DNA of 44,907 nucleotides, from contig JAOUFI010000013.1 in the NCBI GenBank assembly GCA_029858305.1, forward strand, positions 1 through 44,907, read 5' to 3'. The notes below the pieces were generated by a model. The model was not told where the DNA came from and did not search any database. It was given only the letters and a program-made list of their open reading frames with translations. Position 1 is the first letter of the stretch. The number at the start of each line of letters is the position of its first letter. Both the position numbers and the translations under genes were made by a program. This document shows, in pieces, positions 32,294-43,737 of this stretch. The stretch is from Candidatus Thorarchaeota archaeon. GTDB taxonomy: Archaea > Asgardarchaeota > Thorarchaeia > Thorarchaeales > Thorarchaeaceae.

Positions 32294-34930
32294 ATGATGA
32301 GCGGGAAAAATCGAAGAGATGTACAGGCACAAAGCACTGTCGAAGCCATAAGAATGGCTTCCGCTTCAGTTTTGGGATCAACGACTGGTTTAGGCTATCC
32401 AGTTGGAAGCGCAATGGGCACAGGGAGTATGCTTGAACAGCATTCCGAAACGGTCTCAATGAATATTGCGCCTCTCGTCTTTAATGTGCGAGATACCTTA
32501 CTCTCTTCAGAAGGGCTAGAACTACTCTCAATTGAGTGGAATCTCGAGAGAACACCTGGACCTGGAGTTCTACCTGAACAACTCGTAGTAGCTGGTGGGT
32601 CTGAAGGAGGTGTTGGGACCCACGTCTGTGTATTGAGTTGGGAGAAGGGTGTTGTTGATCCCTTCAAAATAGACCAATACGTGAAGGAACTATCCAAAAA
32701 ACTTGGAGATATAGAAACTGCAGTTATAAACAATGAGCTCAATTATGATTTAGAAGGCCTTGCTGTCATTCAACGCTTTGCAGATCGTTTGAATAAGGTT
32801 CTATTCGTTGATATGCTTGATAGGCGATTCCAAGGCTCGTGGGATTCATTTCAGGTCAAAGCTGAGCAAATGGCAATAGAGGCTGTGGCACAGATGTCGA
32901 TTTATGATGACTTTACACTTGTCCCTCCTGGTTTGAAGATTTCTCAACGCAAGAAGCTTGATTTTAGATTGCCATCGTTATCAGAGGGTGATGTCTTTGA
33001 ACACTATCAACACCGTGTACTCACTCCGAGTGCTATTGAGCTATTAACAAAGACCGTACCAGAAACAGGGCAAGCAATACTTGATGAATTAAACACCTAT
33101 GCATATGCCATTGAGGAGGCTGATGTTGCTGAAGGTGTAATCTCAGTTCTGAAGGAATATCTCCAGACAGAAACGGTAAACCTCAAAGATTTACAATCTA
33201 TTAAGAGTAAGACTGCAGAGTTTGTGAGTTACCTTAATGATACTGTTGATGCTCTAGAGTTTGTTGTTGAACAACATTCGAGTTCTGGGAAGAATCTAAG
33301 TTTTGAAGGACACAAAACCGCACTTCTCGCAGATGTTGATACAAACAATGATAGATTCGAAGGAATCAAACATAAACTTGCTCAAGTGCTAGTTATACAA
33401 TTCATGAAGTCAATAGAAAGGGAATCTTTTCAACTCGAGGAGATTCGCGCATGGCAACTCAAGAGCACTCTAAGTTATTCAGTTGCCTATGCTAAAAGAG
33501 TCGCACAATACTTTGCTCAAGAATTTGATCACTATTTAATTACATCAGCGGCAAAAGAAGCATTCTTTACAGCACTTCGTGACTTTCGTCAAGAGGTTGC
33601 TCAAGAAGGCATGGATTCCACAAACGTGATGTTTTTTGAGAAATTTTATGCAGAGGTTGAATCAAAGATTAATGCATCCTTTTCAAGAAAGTCGTTTCAA
33701 GGTGTTGAATATCATGATTTTATTCAATTGATGGATTCAATAACGCGAGAGATGATTGAAACCTTCAGACACATTGATGTATGGAATCTAATTGAATTTT
33801 CAGATGTTGCAGAGATTGCCCGTTCTGAGATACAAAAGAAACATTCAGATCCCACCGATGTTGGGATGCTCACTCCAACTGGTACAGCGCTCATGGCTCT
33901 TTTAAACCAGTTCCAAACTAGTGTGTCAGATATCATCCCAAATGTAGCTGATACAATCTTATCGAAACCTGTAATCCGAAGGATGATTGACAAAATGAGG
34001 ACTGAGGGCACTAGTCTAAACGATGAACTTTCATCAGCAATTGAGAGCGCTGGTGAGAAGTCGGAGGAGTGGAGAAAGGAAGCAGTCAATTGGGTTGAAG
34101 GTTTCCGTGATAGCGTAGACGCTTCATTATCTCTCCCAGAATCTCTACTCGCTTTATTGCAATATGTGCATGAACTACTTAGTGAGGCTGTATCTCCAAG
34201 TGCAATTGCTGATCGGGTGAAAACAGAGGCAGATGCAAGGGAGGCTGCCTTCAAAACTAAACTAGATGAATGGCAATTCCTTTGCGATGAAATTAAACGT
34301 GAGAATGAAGTAATTCGCGACAATAATAATAGGCGTAGCGAACTCATAAACGAAACAACACGACAATATGAAACTGAGATGTCAGCATACGAGCGAGAAG
34401 TACGTGAATATCAGGAAAAGGTAGAACAAAGAGAAATTCTAAAGGCAAATGCAACCGAAGATGGGACAAAATTGCCTGAACTGCCGATGGAACCAGTTCG
34501 ACCTTTGCCGCTTGAACCACGCATTGAAACCATAAAAAGAAACTATCCAGTTGAACAAGAAAAATCATTCCCACCTGAACCCCAACCTGAATCCACTCTT
34601 CACTATTATGTTGAGCTACGAGATATTCTCTATGATAAACTGACAGAAATGAAAGAACGCGAAACTAGTATGGAGGAAACTTTTGCACGGAGAATCTTGA
34701 AACTGCAGGCAGAGGGGATGGGAGCTGCTGGAGTAATTAATATCAATATAGGTGATGAGTTTCTCGAGTACCTCATGGGTTCACGAATTCGAGGTCTTGG
34801 TCGATTGCTACCTCGTATCTCTCGTGTCTTCTTGAGAGACCCGAAAATAGCCAATCTTCTATATCTTATATCCTATGAACACTTTGATGACATATTGACA
34901 GTTTCAATTGGGAGTACGTATCTGAGGTGA
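32294..34930 (+). CDS. Large hypothetical helical/coiled-coil protein
   Basis: About 880-aa uninterrupted ORF; AAGGAG RBS before ATG 32294; coiled coil with Pro-rich insert near the C-terminus. Confidence 0.8.
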   Translation: MMSGKNRRDVQAQSTVEAIRMASASVLGSTTGLGYPVGSAMGTGSMLEQHSETVSMNIAPLVFNVRDTLLSSEGLELLSIEWNLERTPGPGVLPEQLVVAGGSEGGVGTHVCVLSWEKGVVDPFKIDQYVKELSKKLGDIETAVINNELNYDLEGLAVIQRFADRLNKVLFVDMLDRRFQGSWDSFQVKAEQMAIEAVAQMSIYDDFTLVPPGLKISQRKKLDFRLPSLSEGDVFEHYQHRVLTPSAIELLTKTVPETGQAILDELNTYAYAIEEADVAEGVISVLKEYLQTETVNLKDLQSIKSKTAEFVSYLNDTVDALEFVVEQHSSSGKNLSFEGHKTALLADVDTNNDRFEGIKHKLAQVLVIQFMKSIERESFQLEEIRAWQLKSTLSYSVAYAKRVAQYFAQEFDHYLITSAAKEAFFTALRDFRQEVAQEGMDSTNVMFFEKFYAEVESKINASFSRKSFQGVEYHDFIQLMDSITREMIETFRHIDVWNLIEFSDVAEIARSEIQKKHSDPTDVGMLTPTGTALMALLNQFQTSVSDIIPNVADTILSKPVIRRMIDKMRTEGTSLNDELSSAIESAGEKSEEWRKEAVNWVEGFRDSVDASLSLPESLLALLQYVHELLSEAVSPSAIADRVKTEADAREAAFKTKLDEWQFLCDEIKRENEVIRDNNNRRSELINETTRQYETEMSAYEREVREYQEKVEQREILKANATEDGTKLPELPMEPVRPLPLEPRIETIKRNYPVEQEKSFPPEPQPESTLHYYVELRDILYDKLTEMKERETSMEETFARRILKLQAEGMGAAGVININIGDEFLEYLMGSRIRGLGRLLPRISRVFLRDPKIANLLYLISYEHFDDILTVSIGSTYLR

Positions 34931-37386
34931 GATCTATGGCAAGTTCTTGGGTACTTAAAACACGACAAGGCAGCGAGGCTGGCAAAGAGATACTTCTTCG
35001 AGAAGCTTTAGTCACTCATATGCGCAGTACAAGGGATAGGCAGCTCTTTGCAGAAACGCTTACAGAAACTCAACCTCTTGAAGATGTATTCTCCTTTTTT
35101 GCCTCCTTCTATCTTCATAGCTATCAGGGCATCCGATTATTAAAGGCATCAGATTCTCCTGAGTTGACAGCAGACGGAAAAGATGACCTTGGTCGAGAAG
35201 AACGCCGTCAATTGGAACTAGAGGTTCGGCAACTCCTGGGTGAAAGACAGCGTGAAGAGATTGATATAGCTCGCATATCAAGCGAGCTTACCGTTCGACT
35301 CTGTGACGAATTGAGTGGAAAAGACAATTCGACTCCTGATACGCTAAACAAGATAATCTCGCTTATCAAAGAATATCTTCAAAAAATTCCTTCAGATTAC
35401 ACCCCCAATCATGATATTGATTTAATAATCGAAATCACTGGATGGGGCCCTGAATGGAGGGATGAGCTCTACACCAAAGCCTCCGGACTGAAAGAGAGCG
35501 CGCTATCCTTGAGGGAAGAGTTACTACGCGAACATCCTTCCGAAGTACCTGAAACAACTGTTCTTCAATGGGGTCTTGAGCATATTTTTGGTAAAATTGA
35601 ATATGCAAAAGGTCGATTGGCAGATACAATCATACCTCCCCGTAATTGGGAAAGGATTGCAACTACAATTTTAGAGCGTTTTTCCAGGAGTACTGATGAA
35701 CTTAATGCAATAAAGCAGGCACACATGATTAGACTATCTTTGCTTGATGCAGTCAAAAATGATTACGATAAGCCAACTACTATTGACGAATATGAGCGAA
35801 GGTTAGGGAATGTTGTCATCGGTTCGATTGCTGATGCTCTATCGGCGAACTCATCGTTTGTACTCGAGATTCTCTCTTCACTTCTGACAATAGGATCCGA
35901 TGATTTGAAAGCCCAACTTCGTCGAAAGGGCATTGATGATGTATCGGTTATTGGCGATGGTCTACGTGCACTGACCAGTGCAGTCGAAGAAACTCCCTCT
36001 GGTCCACAAGTCAGTAAAGAAGAGATGGAACTATTAGAAAGGTCTCTAAAGACATTAGAGAAGCTTGAAGACACTCTTGCGCGACCAGTGAAAGGTTTAC
36101 TAAAAGCTCGAGGCCTTCGAGCATCAGAGCTTGACAAAATTTCTATTGACTTGCTAGCCAAAAACCGGAATAGCTTAGTAGGCATTGAAATTGAGGTTCT
36201 TAATGAGTTATCGAAGAAGATGCGAGTTCCACCTCCAGAGGAGATCATAAGACTACTGGAGATTCGGAATCAAGTAAAGAGTGGCGCACTCAGTTCACTT
36301 GGTATTTCTTCTGCTCGTGATTTTAGTAAGCAACGAATCGAGGATGAGACAATAAGATCAATCAGGCTTGATATTATCTGGCATTTTACAACTGGTATTA
36401 TCACAAATCTTACTAGAGTTGTTGAGTCCTATATTCGATCGAAGCAGGATCTTCTACGTATCAAAGCTCTTCTAAAGAGTATATACGAAGACACTGATAC
36501 AAGTCTTCAATTTCTAAGAGAGGAAATACTAATTGATCTAGCTGCAATGCGCATCTATGAGTTTAAGGTGATTCATCCCAATCTTGACGCTGCGAGAATA
36601 TGCACATGGATGCATGCCCGTCTTTCGAATAAAGATATGAATGCAGCCCAACAAGAGCTTGAAAACACTCCTAGTCCAACCTTAGAGGGCATTATCGATA
36701 AGCCCCTTGAAATGGAGGGTCTTGATTACGATAACTATGCGATTGCATTCGACATTATGCAGAGATTCTTGAAACAGGAACGTTTGGAGAAACTTGCTAA
36801 GGAAGAGTATGCCTATGAAACAAAACAGAAAGAAAAATTGTCCATTGAATCCAAACGTGAGTCGATTGATATTCTAATGTATCTCCATAATAAAGCTCAG
36901 ACTGTCTTTCGCGCCATCGGGCGTGTAGGTACGAAGGGACTGGAATGGTCACAGAGTGATACAACAAAGTGCGCGAATCTTCTATCGTATTATATCAAGA
37001 CAAATCGGGGTCGATTAATTTGCTCTGCATGTGGTGCAGTGCTAAAGGAGAACAAATGTGACCAACACGGCAAGAATTTCGTGAAAGATTCTACGGACAT
37101 GGATAACCTAGCCATTTTCATCATGCGAGGAATCTACGAGATCAAGGATGGTTTGGTGGGTACGGGCAGGGGTGCTGAGCCAATGGCTTGGGACAAGGCT
37201 AAATCCACAATTGAAAAAGAGATTGGAGTTCTGAAGCGAAAGGGCAAGCTAACATCTAAAACGAATCTGAAAGAGCTGATGCCTGGAGAGATAAATTATG
37301 TCATTGGTCCTGCAATGTGTGCGATTGTTGGGCAATATTTCAATGAGTCATTGGTATATGCTGCCAGGCGTGCTGACATTGCATAA
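34927..37386 (+). CDS. Large hypothetical helical protein with C3H zinc finger
   Basis: 819-aa ORF abutting the previous stop (GTGA overlap, or ATG just downstream); CSACG..CDQHG. Confidence 0.8.
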   Translation: MRSMASSWVLKTRQGSEAGKEILLREALVTHMRSTRDRQLFAETLTETQPLEDVFSFFASFYLHSYQGIRLLKASDSPELTADGKDDLGREERRQLELEVRQLLGERQREEIDIARISSELTVRLCDELSGKDNSTPDTLNKIISLIKEYLQKIPSDYTPNHDIDLIIEITGWGPEWRDELYTKASGLKESALSLREELLREHPSEVPETTVLQWGLEHIFGKIEYAKGRLADTIIPPRNWERIATTILERFSRSTDELNAIKQAHMIRLSLLDAVKNDYDKPTTIDEYERRLGNVVIGSIADALSANSSFVLEILSSLLTIGSDDLKAQLRRKGIDDVSVIGDGLRALTSAVEETPSGPQVSKEEMELLERSLKTLEKLEDTLARPVKGLLKARGLRASELDKISIDLLAKNRNSLVGIEIEVLNELSKKMRVPPPEEIIRLLEIRNQVKSGALSSLGISSARDFSKQRIEDETIRSIRLDIIWHFTTGIITNLTRVVESYIRSKQDLLRIKALLKSIYEDTDTSLQFLREEILIDLAAMRIYEFKVIHPNLDAARICTWMHARLSNKDMNAAQQELENTPSPTLEGIIDKPLEMEGLDYDNYAIAFDIMQRFLKQERLEKLAKEEYAYETKQKEKLSIESKRESIDILMYLHNKAQTVFRAIGRVGTKGLEWSQSDTTKCANLLSYYIKTNRGRLICSACGAVLKENKCDQHGKNFVKDSTDMDNLAIFIMRGIYEIKDGLVGTGRGAEPMAWDKAKSTIEKEIGVLKRKGKLTSKTNLKELMPGEINYVIGPAMCAIVGQYFNESLVYAARRADIA

Positions 37387-37394
37387 TTCCCCAA

Positions 37395-37715
37395 TTAGCT
37401 CATTGACAGACTTGCAGAAATCCAATCTAGGTAGTTCTTGGAACCTGTTCTGATGTCTAGAACAATGAACTCAGGAACTTCATAGGGATGATTCTCAATA
37501 ATTGTATTCTCCAAACGTTCTTCAAATCCTGCTTCAGTTTTTATGATCAAGATTGATTCTGCATCTGTTACCAACTCATTTTTCCAGTGATATGTGCTTA
37601 TGATATTGGGGACAATATTGACACAGGCGCATACTTGCTTCTCAACAAGTATACGTGCCAACTCTTGGCTAATTGACTCAGGACATGTAGTCATTGCAAG
37701 TATGTATTCCTTCAT
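37395..37715 (-). CDS. cutA: Divalent-cation tolerance protein CutA
   Basis: TTCP, CACVNI, STYHWK, IKT, HPYEVPE, YLDWI motifs. Confidence 0.95.
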   Translation of the reverse strand: MKEYILAMTTCPESISQELARILVEKQVCACVNIVPNIISTYHWKNELVTDAESILIIKTEAGFEERLENTIIENHPYEVPEFIVLDIRTGSKNYLDWISASLSMS

Positions 37716-37817
37716 AGTGAATTTGTGGCATTTCTGCCATATATCGACTTCCCTAGGAAAAGTATCCTAAACGAAGCCCATTTATACCGACCAGCTCGGA
37801 CAGGCATCGGTGATTCT

Positions 37818-39215
37818 GTGAGTAAGTTCGTGCCAAAAGGAGTAATGCCAGCACTTGTAACTCCATTCTCTAGAGATGGAGATATTAGCGAAGAAGGCTT
37901 CAAACAAGTCATCGATTATACTATCAGTAAGGGCGCAACAGGAGTTGTTCCAGCTGGAACGACTGGAGAGTTCTCATATATGAGAACGGAGGAGCGCAAG
38001 AAGCTCTTGAAACTTGCAGTTGAATATGTTGATGGCCGAGTTCCTATTATTGCTGGTACTGGTCAAAACAGTACTAGAGCAAGTGTACTCTTGACCAAGT
38101 ATGCTGCAGACATAGGCTGCGATGCAGCCTTAGTGATTTCACCATACTACCTGAGACCGGGTGATAAGGGATATTTTGAACACTACGCCACTGTGGCACG
38201 AAAGTCGGATTTGCCTGTAATCATGTATAATATTCCCCAATGCACTCTTGGTGTACTGAATTCTAATGTTGTCGAGGATCTTTCTGAGTTAGATAATATT
38301 GTGGGTATCAAAGATAGTAGTGGGAACATACCCTATCTACTCGAACTAATTCAGAAGGTGCAAGGTAAAATCGAGGTTATAATTGGAGCCGATGAATGCT
38401 TTATGTCCGCAGTAGCCGCTGGAGTAAATGCAGCTATTCTAGCTTCTGCAAATCTGATACCCCATATCTGGTTGGATATCATGAAAAAGGTCCGCAAGGG
38501 TAAGATCGAAGAAGCTGCGAAGCTACAGAACTCTGCACAGACTCTTGCACGTATAGTATTGAAGAATGGTGCGGCACCGCCAATCAAAGCTGGTCTTAAA
38601 ATGATGGGCATCAATGCCGGGAAATGCAGGATGCCCCTTGATACCGGAGGAACGCTCCCTCCTGAAACAAAAGAGGAAATTCGCCTGGAACTTGAAAAAC
38701 TTGGTATCATAGAAGAACTCAAGCACCCCCCAATCCAGAGGAAAATCCAAATTCTAGATGCACTAACACAACAGGGATTTGAGGTCAGAGATGCGTCAAA
38801 TATCAAACAGGGTACAGCATCCAACAATATTGTGTCAGTAGGAATTGCAGCTGGAAACAAGAACGGACCAATGGGTCGGACATTCATCAAATTGCTCACT
38901 AATGCGAAGATTGGTCATGAAGCTCTTTCTGTCATTCTCGAACCAAATCTTGCTGTCAAGCCTAGTAGTATTATGTTCCCGATCAGGAAAATCGACTCTA
39001 TGAGACAGGCATCATTGTTTTACGGTCCTGTCCAATCGGGAGTTGCACGAGCAGTGGCAACATTTCTCGAGAATGGTAAGATTCCAAGTCAATCTGTCGA
39101 AAATGATGTGATTGTTTTCGCCTTGGATGTCGACTTGAATACACGAAACCGCAGAGAAGTCACTATGGCAACTCAAGAGGCTACAGAAATTGCCTTGGCT
39201 GACATATGGAGGTAG
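37818..39215 (+). CDS. DapA-family class I aldolase fused to a Fae-like domain (paralog A)
   Basis: PALVTPF, GTTGEF, SPYY, YNIP, GIKDSSG; C-terminal GHEALSVILEPNLAVKP..FYGPVQSGVARAV; GTG 37818 with GGTGA RBS. Confidence 0.88.
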   Translation: MSKFVPKGVMPALVTPFSRDGDISEEGFKQVIDYTISKGATGVVPAGTTGEFSYMRTEERKKLLKLAVEYVDGRVPIIAGTGQNSTRASVLLTKYAADIGCDAALVISPYYLRPGDKGYFEHYATVARKSDLPVIMYNIPQCTLGVLNSNVVEDLSELDNIVGIKDSSGNIPYLLELIQKVQGKIEVIIGADECFMSAVAAGVNAAILASANLIPHIWLDIMKKVRKGKIEEAAKLQNSAQTLARIVLKNGAAPPIKAGLKMMGINAGKCRMPLDTGGTLPPETKEEIRLELEKLGIIEELKHPPIQRKIQILDALTQQGFEVRDASNIKQGTASNNIVSVGIAAGNKNGPMGRTFIKLLTNAKIGHEALSVILEPNLAVKPSSIMFPIRKIDSMRQASLFYGPVQSGVARAVATFLENGKIPSQSVENDVIVFALDVDLNTRNRREVTMATQEATEIALADIWR

Positions 39216-39221
39216 AAATAC

Positions 39222-40700
39222 ATGTACAACGGAGATTATCGTTTCAAGGGTGTATATCCCGCACTGGTTACTCCCTTTGATGAGAATGGTGTGAATGAGA
39301 AGCAGTACAGAGGTTTAATCGATTATGTAATTAAAGCCGGTGCAACTGGAATTGTTCCCTGTGGAACAACTGGTGAGTTTACCAGTATGAAGTTTGAAGA
39401 GAAAGTTGAGGCAATCCGAATCTCTTGCGAAGCTGCAAAGGGGCGTGTACCAGTTCTTGCAGGAACTGGGGCCGCGTACACTGGTGATGTTATCAAGCTG
39501 ACCAGACGTGCTTCCGAGCTTGGAGCTGCTGGAGCCCTAGTTGTTTCTCCATACTTTCTGAAACCTTCTCACAAGGAGGTCTTTGAGCATTTCGAGAAAG
39601 TGGCGAATAATAGTGATATTCCTATCTTCATTTACAACATTCCTCAAGTGACAGGAGTTCCAATGCATTGGACCCTTATTGATGGACTACGAGAGATTGA
39701 CGGAATCGCTGGTATGAAAGACTCTAGTGGTGACCTCGTCAATTTGACCACAATCCTTGTTCGTCGCCCAGAAACCTTCCAGGTTGTGGTTGGGCATGAT
39801 GAGGTAGCACTTCCAGCATTGGCATCAGGATGCGACGGAGCTATACTCGCAAGTGCGAATGTTTTCCCTGATAGATATATCAAGATGCAGACTGCATTGG
39901 CAACTGGTGATCTTAGAGAAGCTATGATCATTCAGCGGAGTATTCAGAAGACAGTTCGAATATTTGTTAACAATGGTGGCGGATTGGCAATTAAGGCTGC
40001 ACTGAATATGATTGGGGTGCCTGTGGGTATGGCTAGACCCCCACTCCTAATTGGAGACTCTCTAGGTTTTGCTGAGCTGGACGAATTGCGAGCTTGTCTT
40101 GAAGATCTTCAACTAATACCCCGAGGACCGGTTACATACAAAATGGGTAACAGATCTATCGTTGCTGAAAACTATCCTAAAGCTATTGGATTAGTACCTG
40201 ATGTCATTTCAGATCTCACTCTACTCCATGGAGAAGCACTGTTTGGTGCGAATACTGAAGTGGCTCATGTAGATCTAGTGCTTGGAATTAGAGATGGTCC
40301 ATTAAAAGAGGCTCTTGTCAAGGCGGGAAAGGTGATGGATGAACGGCACCAATCCAATGTGATTAAGGACCTTGAGCTTACCACTGTATTCTCACCGACT
40401 GTAACAATCACATCTGAGAGCCATAAGAAAATGGTATATGATGTGGCTCAAAAAGCAGTCGTAGATGCGGTAAAACGAACTATTACTGATATGATAATTC
40501 CTGAAGAGTTGATTCCCGATCTAGTACTTGTCGTGAATGTCTTTGTTCACCCAAGCGCAGCAAATCCGAAACGCGTTCATATCAACAATTTCATCGCTGT
40601 CCGTCATGCTATTAGGAGAGCCATTGAAGGGCGGCAAAGTGTTGATGAAATAATTGCACGAAAGGAGTCTGCTCGGCATCCATTTGCGTATAATCCCTGA
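39222..40700 (+). CDS. DapA-family class I aldolase fused to a Fae-like domain (paralog B)
   Basis: PALVTPF, GTTGEF, SPYF, YNIP, GMKDSSG; C-terminal GEALFG..EVAHVDLVLG..VFVHP..AIRRAIEG..RHPF. Confidence 0.9.
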   Translation: MYNGDYRFKGVYPALVTPFDENGVNEKQYRGLIDYVIKAGATGIVPCGTTGEFTSMKFEEKVEAIRISCEAAKGRVPVLAGTGAAYTGDVIKLTRRASELGAAGALVVSPYFLKPSHKEVFEHFEKVANNSDIPIFIYNIPQVTGVPMHWTLIDGLREIDGIAGMKDSSGDLVNLTTILVRRPETFQVVVGHDEVALPALASGCDGAILASANVFPDRYIKMQTALATGDLREAMIIQRSIQKTVRIFVNNGGGLAIKAALNMIGVPVGMARPPLLIGDSLGFAELDELRACLEDLQLIPRGPVTYKMGNRSIVAENYPKAIGLVPDVISDLTLLHGEALFGANTEVAHVDLVLGIRDGPLKEALVKAGKVMDERHQSNVIKDLELTTVFSPTVTITSESHKKMVYDVAQKAVVDAVKRTITDMIIPEELIPDLVLVVNVFVHPSAANPKRVHINNFIAVRHAIRRAIEGRQSVDEIIARKESARHPFAYNP

Positions 40701-40973: not shown

Positions 40974-41792
40974 TCACTTTCTACTATCTTTTTGAATTCC
41001 AATTGCCTTTACTAACACTCCGATGGTCAACACTGGTATTGCATAACAGACCTCAGCAAAATGTGGAAATTCTCTCCAGATGTACCCATTGAAGCTTAAG
41101 GAAGGGAAACTGCTCCCGAATAATAGGATTGAGAAGGTCACGTTTGCAAGAACAGGTACCAAGAACAACCCAAGATTAATTTGTTTCTTCTCATATGCTT
41201 TCAATGCCAAGATTTGTATTATCCCGAGAATGAAGAATATATCACCCAATACAAGTAGTGGGCTTGGTAATCCCGCGAGAATTATGCTTGCATTTATATA
41301 ATAATCTCCTGTGAAAACGAAATTGTATAATGGGGATGCAATCCCAGTTAGAGTGAAATCGAACGGACCTGATATGAAGGGATTCGTGGGATAAAAACTA
41401 CCGCTAACCTGACCAAACGTCACAACACTTGGTAATAACAATCCTGCATACAAATGATAGTCGCGCGTTCTCTTAGATTGCTTTGTACTTGCTAGATTAT
41501 CAAACCATATACGGACTGGATAAAGAAGCGAAGCAATTATCAAAAGTGAAATAGCAAAATTACGAGCCTCAAAGAAACCTGGATATATCCTTACACCGAC
41601 CGCGTCCCAATACATACTTCCGGTCCTGCCTCCCCACATGTAAAATTCCACTAACATTGAAGCGACAAAGAGTGTGAATAATCCAAATATAATGAGAACA
41701 CGTATTGCCAAATAGATAACATTATCCAGATACCTTCCTAGGTTTGTTTCTAAGAATCTCTGTACTCGACTATCCATACTCAACAGAGCCAA
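40974..41792 (-). CDS. Hypothetical multi-pass membrane protein
   Basis: About 6 hydrophobic segments; TTG start with upstream GGAG. Confidence 0.6.
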   Translation of the reverse strand: MALLSMDSRVQRFLETNLGRYLDNVIYLAIRVLIIFGLFTLFVASMLVEFYMWGGRTGSMYWDAVGVRIYPGFFEARNFAISLLIIASLLYPVRIWFDNLASTKQSKRTRDYHLYAGLLLPSVVTFGQVSGSFYPTNPFISGPFDFTLTGIASPLYNFVFTGDYYINASIILAGLPSPLLVLGDIFFILGIIQILALKAYEKKQINLGLFLVPVLANVTFSILLFGSSFPSLSFNGYIWREFPHFAEVCYAIPVLTIGVLVKAIGIQKDSRK

Positions 41793-42597: not shown

Positions 42598-43737
42598 ATG
42601 CAAGAATCTAGAGTACTATCACTTCTAAAAGATCTGGTCGCAACAAACTCAGAAAATCCGCCTGGACGAGAAGATTCAGTTGCTAAAGTGCTTCGTGATC
42701 ACATGGAAGCGAATGGGATTGCATGTATTTCAGTAGGATCAAGCAAACGGCCAAATCTCATATTTTCAAGTCATGAAGGTCAACGTGGTACTCTAGTCAT
42801 GCACGGCCATATGGACACAGTTCCGATTGGCAAATTGACAGACTGGTCGTACGATCCATTCGGATCTGAAATCATTGATGGACACCTATACGGTAGAGGC
42901 GCTTGCGATATGAAAGGACCGGTCGCAGCTCTTGTAGAAACTCTCATTCTTTATGCTGAAGAAAAGCATCGTGAACCTCTACTGATTCTAGCAACCTCTG
43001 ATGAAGAAAGTGGGTGTTCTGGAGCCGAAGAGGTGGCAAGAAGCGGAAAACTTGCTGGAGTAAAATACGGAGTTTGCGCTGAACCGACAGATCTTCAAGT
43101 TCTTGTGGGTGAAAAGGGAATGTTCTGGTTCAAGGTTATTGCCACCGGTAAGTCAGCACATGGGTCACGACCGTTAGAGGGTATTAATGCAATTGAAGCA
43201 TGTATGGAAGCCATAAAGACAATAGCTTCTGCACCGTTTCCACATGATGAAGATGTGTTGCTGGGAGAACCTACATTGAATGTCGGAATGATTCAAGGAG
43301 GTATCAAGATAAATGTGGTCCCTGCAACCTGCGAAGCCCAACTTGATATGAGAACGGTAAAGGGACAAAGTCCTGAATCCTTGACCACTCAGATGAACGA
43401 TAGACTTGAATCTGCAGGCCTTTCTGACAAAATACGAATTGAATACATCCATGGAAAACCATCTGTTAGTACTCCTCAAGAATCCGAGATAGTACAAATA
43501 GTAGTGGAAGAGGTCCAGCGTGTTACAGGTATAAGACCAGCTTTGAGTTCTGCTACATATGGGACTGATTGTTCTGTCTTGCAACCTAAGTTAGGTATCA
43601 TCAATGTAATATGTGGTCCTGGTTCGATTGAACAAGCTCATCAGCCTAACGAGTTCATAAGACTTAACCAGTTACACCAATCTATTGAAGTATATCTCGA
43701 AATCGCGCGTAGATTTGACAGAAAGCGGTTCTCCTAG
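42598..43737 (+). CDS. M20 family metallopeptidase/deacylase (ArgE/DapE-like)
   Basis: SENPPG, GHMDTVP, YGRGACDMKG, DEE, EPT, GKSAHGS, GTD, GPG..AHQPNE motifs. Confidence 0.93.
   Translation: MQESRVLSLLKDLVATNSENPPGREDSVAKVLRDHMEANGIACISVGSSKRPNLIFSSHEGQRGTLVMHGHMDTVPIGKLTDWSYDPFGSEIIDGHLYGRGACDMKGPVAALVETLILYAEEKHREPLLILATSDEESGCSGAEEVARSGKLAGVKYGVCAEPTDLQVLVGEKGMFWFKVIATGKSAHGSRPLEGINAIEACMEAIKTIASAPFPHDEDVLLGEPTLNVGMIQGGIKINVVPATCEAQLDMRTVKGQSPESLTTQMNDRLESAGLSDKIRIEYIHGKPSVSTPQESEIVQIVVEEVQRVTGIRPALSSATYGTDCSVLQPKLGIINVICGPGSIEQAHQPNEFIRLNQLHQSIEVYLEIARRFDRKRFS

Follow-up and report, generated by a model that had tools for sequence, protein, structure and literature searches.

The stretch of DNA considered here, which as a whole is referred to as the window (44,907 nucleotides, positions 1 to 44,907 of contig JAOUFI010000013.1), belongs to a Candidatus Thorarchaeota archaeon whose genome measures 3.04 Mb and is 88.9% complete. 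It carries two genes, here called A and B, in each of which an aldolase domain of the DHDPS type is followed by a domain of the formaldehyde-activating enzyme (Fae) family. The genes lie in tandem, head to tail and both on the + strand, and their products are 34% identical over 452 aa. The longest open reading frame (ORF) of A runs from 37725 to 39215 (+) and would encode 496 aa counted from its first start; the true start is likely the GTG at 37818, matching the 465-aa length of the database version P0001. The features are listed below, where the loop face and the His face are two surfaces of the Fae fold to which we return.

37818..39215, + strand: gene A, DHDPS-like aldolase domain plus A-type Fae domain, 465 aa from the GTG at 37818
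37836..38642, + strand: DHDPS/N-acetylneuraminate-lyase superfamily domain of A, with GTTGEF at 37956-37973, YNIPQCT at 38226-38246, the Schiff-base Lys motif GIKDSSG at 38304-38324, and Cys at the substrate-binding Arg position of DHDPS
38823..39200, + strand: A-type Fae domain, loop face kept; catalytic His, VFVHP and C-terminal arm lost
39208..39224, + strand: A/B junction, with GGAGG at 39208-39212 in the last codons of A, the TAG stop at 39213-39215, a 6-nt spacer and the ATG of B at 39222
39222..40700, + strand: gene B, DHDPS-like aldolase domain plus B-type Fae domain, 492 aa
39243..40049, + strand: DHDPS/N-acetylneuraminate-lyase superfamily domain of B, with GTTGEF at 39363-39380, YNIPQVT at 39633-39653, GMKDSSG at 39711-39731, and Val at the DHDPS Arg position
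40230..40685, + strand: B-type Fae domain, His face kept; loop 4 residues shorter, FGP lost

Fae is a free-standing homopentamer that condenses formaldehyde with tetrahydromethanopterin (H4MPT). From its structure, roles have reportedly been assigned to His22, as the acid catalyst, to Gln88 and to the cleft between neighbouring subunits. The ten chains found in the two entries of the Methylorubrum extorquens enzyme, 1Y5Y and 1Y60, are consistent with a pentamer. Entry 1y60, the title of which gives the same Fae, is presumably the cofactor-bound form, and its chains of 168-169 residues, compared with 158-161 in 1y5y, fit the ordering of the C-terminal arm that is said to accompany cofactor binding.

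Both products of the locus match this family. Pfam matches place DHDPS at residues 38-306 and Fae at 367-492 of the 496-aa frame of A (Fae profile positions 10-135 of 159, 96.3 bits), and DHDPS at residues 8-276 and Fae at 337-488 of B (profile positions 2-158 of 159, 98.6 bits). Both Fae scores exceed the PF08714 cut-off of 27, and both miss the 118.05 bits of the NCBIfam Fae equivalog-domain model (TIGR03126), with 91.5 for A and 110.7 for B. The predicted folds of the two domains are those of Fae, with a predicted local distance difference test score (pLDDT) of 93.8 and 88.0, and in Foldseek both models matched 1y5y/1y60 with E values of about 1e-14 to 1e-15 and template modelling (TM) scores of 0.73-0.80, normalised to the query. 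When aligned to the 1y5y chain, B spans residues 8-168 (E 2.9e-18) and A spans 16-140 only (E 3.3e-12).

The two domains differ in what they have kept. A retains GHEALSVILEPNLAVKP at 38913-38963 and FYGPVQ at 39018-39035; it reads NIVSVGI (38826-38846) in place of the EVAHIDL of Fae, the His of EVAH being replaced by Ser, and VFALDVDLN in place of VFIHxxA, and its C-terminus is ADIWR, without the HPF arm. B retains GEALFG (40230-40247), EVAHVDL (40257-40277, with His349 and Asp351), PTVTI (40395-40409), VFVHP (40539-40553) and RHPF (40674-40685); it reads DLELTT (40368-40385), with a 4-residue deletion, in place of PNLPxKP, and YDVAQ (40437-40451) in place of FGPAQ, so that the GP is gone. Neither chain therefore holds a complete Fae domain (PNLxxKP loop, FGPxQ and HPF arm), and the catalytic His of EVAH, present only as His349 of B, belongs to the pair taken jointly. 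Column for column, the same losses were found in 21 A and 21 B orthologues of the window's family, and they recur across several phyla, in 79 A-type and 100 B-type sequences. The frames are intact, identity between 16 genera is 60-87% and the sequences are conserved in several phyla, which rules out pseudogenes or chance decay. The sequence-only reading of this locus had described the two domains as decayed in complementary halves; each motif that it named was found at its place, in agreement with the coverage of the Fae profile and with the alignments to 1y5y, and the word "decayed" is misleading, since the split is ancient, held by purifying selection and common to archaea and bacteria.

A Pfam scan of the 86 genomes of the window's family detected Fae matches in 79, with exactly two in 71 genomes, one in 7 (which are 62-91% complete) and four in 1. 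A match of canonical strength was found in none of the 86, the best E values being about 1e-27 to 1e-36, and most of the other Asgard families scanned had canonical Fae matches with E of about 1e-65 to 1e-72. The B-type domain was found in 76 of the 86 genomes, at 64-87% identity and in single copy except in one genome (G359). In a sample of 20 loci from B-bearing genomes, one or two per genus and covering 16 genera, A preceded B on the same strand in all 20, with spacers of -4 to +7 nt; at one of these loci (L037) the start of the contig truncates A. When a profile of the fusion was searched against 1.84 billion representatives, about 13 clusters of full-length fusions ranked above the plain DapAs (~295 aa). 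They include A-like (P0096, P0124, P0127, P0128, P0129, P0132) and B-like representatives (P0121, P0123, P0125, P0126, P0134) as well as one with a complete Fae domain (P0122). A further fusion representative, P0133, has a strongly degenerate Fae domain that is of neither type.

The pair is not confined to Asgard archaea. Four non-Asgard B-like Fae domains were used as queries against species-representative genomes, and the best 80 of 379 stretches were analysed; these were mostly from Chloroflexota/Anaerolineae, together with 2 from Thermodesulfobacteriota, 1 from 'Proteobacteria' and 5 from Thermoplasmata/Methanomassiliicoccales. An A-type gene lay upstream on the same strand in 58 of these 80 loci, at a distance of 13-1850 nt, and the remainder comprised 16 loci with less than 1.5 kb of upstream DNA and 6 that had room for A but did not show it. 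Ten of the genomes behind these 22 loci were searched, and 8 were found to carry one A-like match, ending near profile position 138-141, and one B-like match, spanning 1-158, the partner lying elsewhere in the genome. The Chloroflexota genome G407 is ambiguous, as its second Fae match spans 1-149 and contains an in-frame TAA (G407:C123:23455-23904). Among the ten genomes searched in this way, the two paralogues were present together apart from this genome and G406, in which only B was seen. The sequence-only reading had asked whether both paralogues always co-occur with the same loss pattern; they stand together at all 20 family loci and at 58 of the 80 non-Asgard loci, the partner was found elsewhere in 8 of 10 genomes, and lone copies with the same degeneration were almost never encountered.

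A complex of the two Fae domains was modelled, each domain being entered as a 42-row alignment. The A-Fae/B-Fae model gave an interaction score from predicted aligned errors (ipSAE) of 0.88, compared with 0.00 for the best of three controls; of 80 solved complexes 58 attain the mark set for this score, as do 2 of 110 mismatched pairs, counts that are only rough here since our own alignments were used. Three runs shared at least 90% of contacts, with partner pLDDT of at least 84. On the A side the modelled interface is formed by residues 43-78 and 94-113 of the modelled piece (GHEAL..EPNLAVKP and YGP.Q, here YGPVQ), and on the B side by residues 19-23, 32, 34, 76-78, 120, 122 and 167-171, which correspond to HGEAL, His349, Asp351, the TVT strand of PTVT, V.N of VNVF, and ARHPF. 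The model thus joins the motifs kept in A to the motifs kept in B, as the opposite faces of a Fae-like interface.

The interface sets of the model were then taken as the loop face and the His face, and conservation in the 79 A-type and 100 B-type sequences was compared with that in 35 complete Fae domains. Of the reference-conserved residues in loop-face columns, A kept 11 of 25 and B 2 of 25; in His-face columns A kept 5 of 29 and B 16 of 29 (Fisher p = 0.001). Within-group conservation followed the same pattern, at 0.78 in A and 0.44 in B for the loop face and 0.37 in A and 0.82 in B for the His face, with 0.50 and 0.69, respectively, in non-interface columns. By both measures the retained motifs map to different faces rather than to the same one, as had been proposed from the sequence, with the proviso that the model may echo the solved pentamer. 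Since the surrendered faces are the least conserved parts of each copy, a closed ring is improbable, and the data are most simply read as a pair that shares one composite site. Furthermore, that the pair has stayed unchanged in distant archaea and bacteria, with each copy keeping one face, suggests that the two proteins probably work only together.

A form in which the Fae domain was never divided appears to survive in other Asgard archaea. Five genomes picked from four other Asgard families each encode a canonical Fae, in a frame of ~413-437 aa that has the length of Fae-Hps, in which Fae is joined to hexulose-phosphate synthase (Hps), and in addition one fusion of ~500 aa. This S-type fusion is a single gene, its Fae domain has every motif, and it is 37-44% identical to A and 38-44% identical to B. 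The five genes are as follows.

L057, 496-1986: S-type fusion, complete Fae domain
L058, 487-1986: S-type fusion, complete Fae domain
L059, 1489-2973, - strand: S-type fusion, complete Fae domain
L060, 484-1992: S-type fusion, complete Fae domain
L061, 475-2001: S-type fusion, complete Fae domain

Neither a complete-Fae fusion nor a canonical Fae copy was found in the A/B-bearing genomes examined, nor did these show a third Fae gene, the family genome with four Fae matches being the only one of its kind among the 86. A quick IQ-TREE phylogeny of 61 rows, rooted on six plain DapAs and assessed only by the Shimodaira-Hasegawa-like approximate likelihood ratio test (SH-aLRT), supports the fusion family at 99, clade B at 98, clade A at 83 and clade S at 91, with S as the sister clade. 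The A and B subtrees mirror one another, each branching into the Thorarchaeia, then Thermoplasmata, then Chloroflexota with nested Thermodesulfobacteriota; this shared branching suggests that the pair was inherited and transferred as a unit. A duplication specific to the Thorarchaeia is ruled out, as archaea and bacteria are both present in each of the two clades, A and B. It was also suggested previously that the split resolves a clash between the 5-fold symmetry of Fae and the 2-fold symmetry of DapA, an idea left unsupported by the existence of single fusions with a complete Fae domain. As an aside, large assemblies could arise from the S-type protein, since it combines a domain that forms pentamers with one that forms dimers or tetramers.

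Taken together, these results are best explained by a heteromer of A and B that shares a single composite pterin site, an interpretation that we regard as probable though well short of certain. A and B would be the two subunits of one enzyme, each with a Fae-fold domain at the C-terminus, behind a pyruvate-aldolase domain of class I (Schiff-base lysine) that is intact. In the ancestral fusion, which would persist in other Asgard archaea as the single gene whose Fae domain is complete, the Fae domains are presumed to have packed head-to-tail as in the Fae pentamer. Following an ancient duplication, each copy would have retained one of the two packing faces: A the loop face, with the PNLxxKP loop and the start of the GPxQ helix, and B the His face, with the GEAL strand, the acid-catalyst His and the Asp of EVAH, PTVT, VFVHP and the C-terminal RHPF arm. 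Only the contact between the loop face of A and the His face of B could then form, and the Fae module would be an A·B unit with one composite pterin/one-carbon (C1) site instead of a ring with five sites. Both the physical binding of A to B and catalysis at the composite site are inferred. The layout of the junction suggests translational coupling of the two genes, and their adjacency, with a Shine-Dalgarno-like motif in the last codons of A, would favour equal production.

Several observations weigh against this interpretation. Since the Fae homopentamer has already been solved, the high score of the modelled complex may reflect memory, and would then indicate likeness to Fae rather than binding of A to B; the likeness is still informative because it puts the residues in question on the Fae inter-subunit interface. 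The face test takes its faces from the same model and so does not stand apart from it, and the columns depend on one another. When all reference-conserved columns were considered, complementary retention was not significant (Fisher p = 0.80 at a threshold of 0.8 and 0.10 at 0.9), and many reference-conserved Fae residues are lost in both A and B. Covariation between the two proteins gave no signal (p = 0.13 and 0.32) with an effective N of ~25, which is too few effective sequences. The altered loop region of B is still fairly conserved within the family and may have some other role. All catalytic motifs are present in both aldolase domains, so that nothing there forces a heteromer, and G406 shows a B-like match alone, in a 375-aa frame. 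Finally, of 5 A/B genomes searched for Mch (PF02289), a marker of the H4MPT pathway, 3 gave no match, namely two from Anaerolineae (G402, G403) and a Thermoplasmata chromosome (G405, locus L132), indicating that H4MPT is not the cofactor everywhere; the Fae-like site in such genomes may use another pterin. In the window's own genome two full-length Mch genes were found (G000:C116:5644-6576 and C205:191458-192393), which makes the availability of H4MPT plausible in this organism.

Some of these points would also suit other explanations. The heteromer might be asymmetric, with B alone holding the whole Fae-like site and the Fae domain of A reduced to a dead scaffold or pseudo-subunit that holds B or links the aldolase domains. 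B does have equivalents of all the Fae residues said to be catalytic or substrate-binding, namely the His, the Asp, the Thr of PTVT and the Gln in VAQ, and A is without the His, the Asp and the arm. However, no part of A is better conserved across phyla than the loop face, which exceeds the non-interface columns of A, the PNL and GPxQ of this face are near-invariant in canonical Fae too, which suggests more than a packing role, and these are exactly the elements that B has lost; we therefore consider a silent A domain unlikely. A similarly low probability is given to the possibility that A and B are two independent enzymes, each with a new function and its own homomers, which are kept together by a shared pathway. 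Such a history would agree with the aldolase domains, in which 70 of 71 A sequences and 89 of 91 B sequences retain the Schiff-base Lys together with GTTGE and YNIPQ, with the lack of significance of complementarity over all columns and of a covariation signal, and with genes that lie more than 200 nt apart in 20 of 58 non-Asgard pairs and on different contigs in some genomes. It sits poorly with the face-specific conservation, as each copy is without one face needed for Fae-like homomeric packing, and with the mirrored trees, the near-universal co-occurrence and the mutual exclusion between the pair and the complete single-copy form.

It is also conceivable that both are true DapAs (4-hydroxy-tetrahydrodipicolinate synthases) that use the Fae-derived domain as a regulatory, ligand-binding module, a suggestion that we hold to be very improbable. 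No DHDPS-family gene other than A and B was found in the genome. With 220.6 and 224 bits, respectively, the two exceed the 206.15 bits required by the dapA equivalog model of NCBIfam (TIGR00674), which explains why public records name them '4-hydroxy-tetrahydrodipicolinate synthase', and the Schiff-base Lys, the Tyr of YN(I/V)P and GTTGE are present in both. The Arg of YNVPGRT in DHDPS binds aspartate semialdehyde and is essential. Aligned with two solved DHDPS structures, this position is Cys in A of the locus; B of the locus has Val, and none of 167 family members (71 A, 91 B and 5 S) has Arg there. In addition, the 88.9%-complete genome gave no DapB_C match, and its best LysA match scored 84 bits, compared with a cut-off of 297.9. 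Neither A nor B looks like a true DapA; the missing Arg and the lack of a DapB_C match and of a LysA match above the cut-off lead us to regard the domain as a pyruvate aldolase that works with a different aldehyde partner. A second complementary asymmetry, within the aldolase domain, was considered at the Tyr107-like position, which is Tyr in A and Phe in B in the window's family, and was rejected because it fails in other phyla. One of the 21 B proteins (among loci L033-L052) has GLSDASG and ASLGEF, versus GxKDSSG and GTTGEF, and has lost the Schiff-base Lys.

As to what an A·B heteromer might do, the analogy with Fae-Hps leads us to guess that the aldolase domain and a tetrahydropterin (H4MPT here) exchange a C1 unit, as for example in the conversion of formaldehyde and pyruvate to 4-hydroxy-2-oxobutanoate. 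In its boldest form the proposal is that of a widespread, unstudied two-subunit enzyme of Asgard archaea, Thermoplasmatota, Chloroflexota and Thermodesulfobacteriota, in which the ring-forming Fae was turned into an obligate A·B pair whose one composite tetrahydropterin site exchanges a C1 unit directly with the fused pyruvate aldolase, with methylene-pterin + pyruvate <-> 4-hydroxy-2-oxobutanoate + pterin as one candidate reaction. This full version is speculative, and the odds are against it. If true, it would provide a natural C1-to-C4 link that is absent from pathway maps, and the window's family, in which canonical Fae is lacking, would have no formaldehyde-handling Fae besides the A/B pair. 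Should these organisms require Fae activity, no candidate other than the pair is available.

The genes that neighbour the A/B pair in the window have no evident link to it. Directly upstream, 34927-37386 (+) is an 819-aa ORF of which the only Pfam match is a weak zinc-ribbon, below the cut-off; a CutA1 gene (37395-37715, -) and a gene for a 272-aa membrane-like protein without a Pfam family (40974-41792, -) flank the pair, and an M20-family peptidase (ArgE/DapE/LysK-like) is encoded at 42598-43737 (+). In the 80 non-Asgard loci no conserved neighbours that could hint at a function were found beyond the pair, the commonest, which has no Pfam family, occurring in 11. Two unrelated Pfam-less ORF families do lie directly upstream of A on the same strand, one in 11 of the 80 loci (for example L132:26-1030, +) and the other in 8 (L113:2-1063, +).

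If the heteromer is obligate, the pair would offer a clear example from nature in which two paralogues have divided between them the active-site interface of a homo-oligomer, with the unsplit, ancestor-like form alive in sister lineages and available for comparison. Hundreds of public genes named '4-hydroxy-tetrahydrodipicolinate synthase' are probably mis-named. This bears on metabolic reconstructions of Thorarchaeia-like Asgard archaea, which would have no Fae besides the A/B pair and apparently no DapA of the diaminopimelate (DAP) pathway. Moreover, a pyruvate aldolase joined to a domain for pterin and formaldehyde points to a C1 reaction that has yet to be mapped. In the literature seen, which consisted of listings and abstracts and of a look-up of terms in PMC8879981, nothing was found on a DHDPS-Fae fusion or on paired Fae paralogues, and the S-type family likewise seems to be undescribed.

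Neither A nor B alone has the defining features of Fae or of DapA, and each resembles several known systems in part. With the Fae of M. extorquens (1Y5Y/1Y60; PF08714) they share the fold, B having in common with it the EVAH His, VFxHP and the HPF arm and A the PNLxxKP loop and GPxQ; that enzyme, however, has ~170 aa and every motif in each subunit, whereas A and B carry half of the motifs each, behind an aldolase. Fae-Hps (NF009833), known from methanogens and other Asgard archaea, is likewise a Fae domain fused to a formaldehyde-handling enzyme of the aldolase type and was the model for our functional guess. In contrast to A and B, its Fae domain is N-terminal and complete (E of about 1e-65 to 1e-72), its partner is a hexulose-phosphate synthase that is not DHDPS-like, and it is absent from the window's family. 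The S-type fusion (L057-L061; P0122) has the same two-domain architecture as A and B, but is one gene with all the Fae motifs in one domain, occurs beside a canonical Fae-Hps, and is uncharacterised according to our searches. With the DHDPS/N-acetylneuraminate-lyase superfamily (PF00701; 3pud, 3hij, 1dhp) the pair shares the Schiff-base Lys, the Tyr of YN(I/V)P and GTTGE; it differs from DHDPS in the absence of the Arg that binds aspartate semialdehyde, in the extra C-terminal Fae domain and in that no partners of the DAP pathway were found. In the fungal V-ATPase ring, paralogous subunits form a heteromer through complementary loss of interfaces, and both copies are indispensable. There too a duplication left one interface per copy; in A and B, in contrast, the interface would also carry the active site, and the ring is predicted to have opened into a pair.

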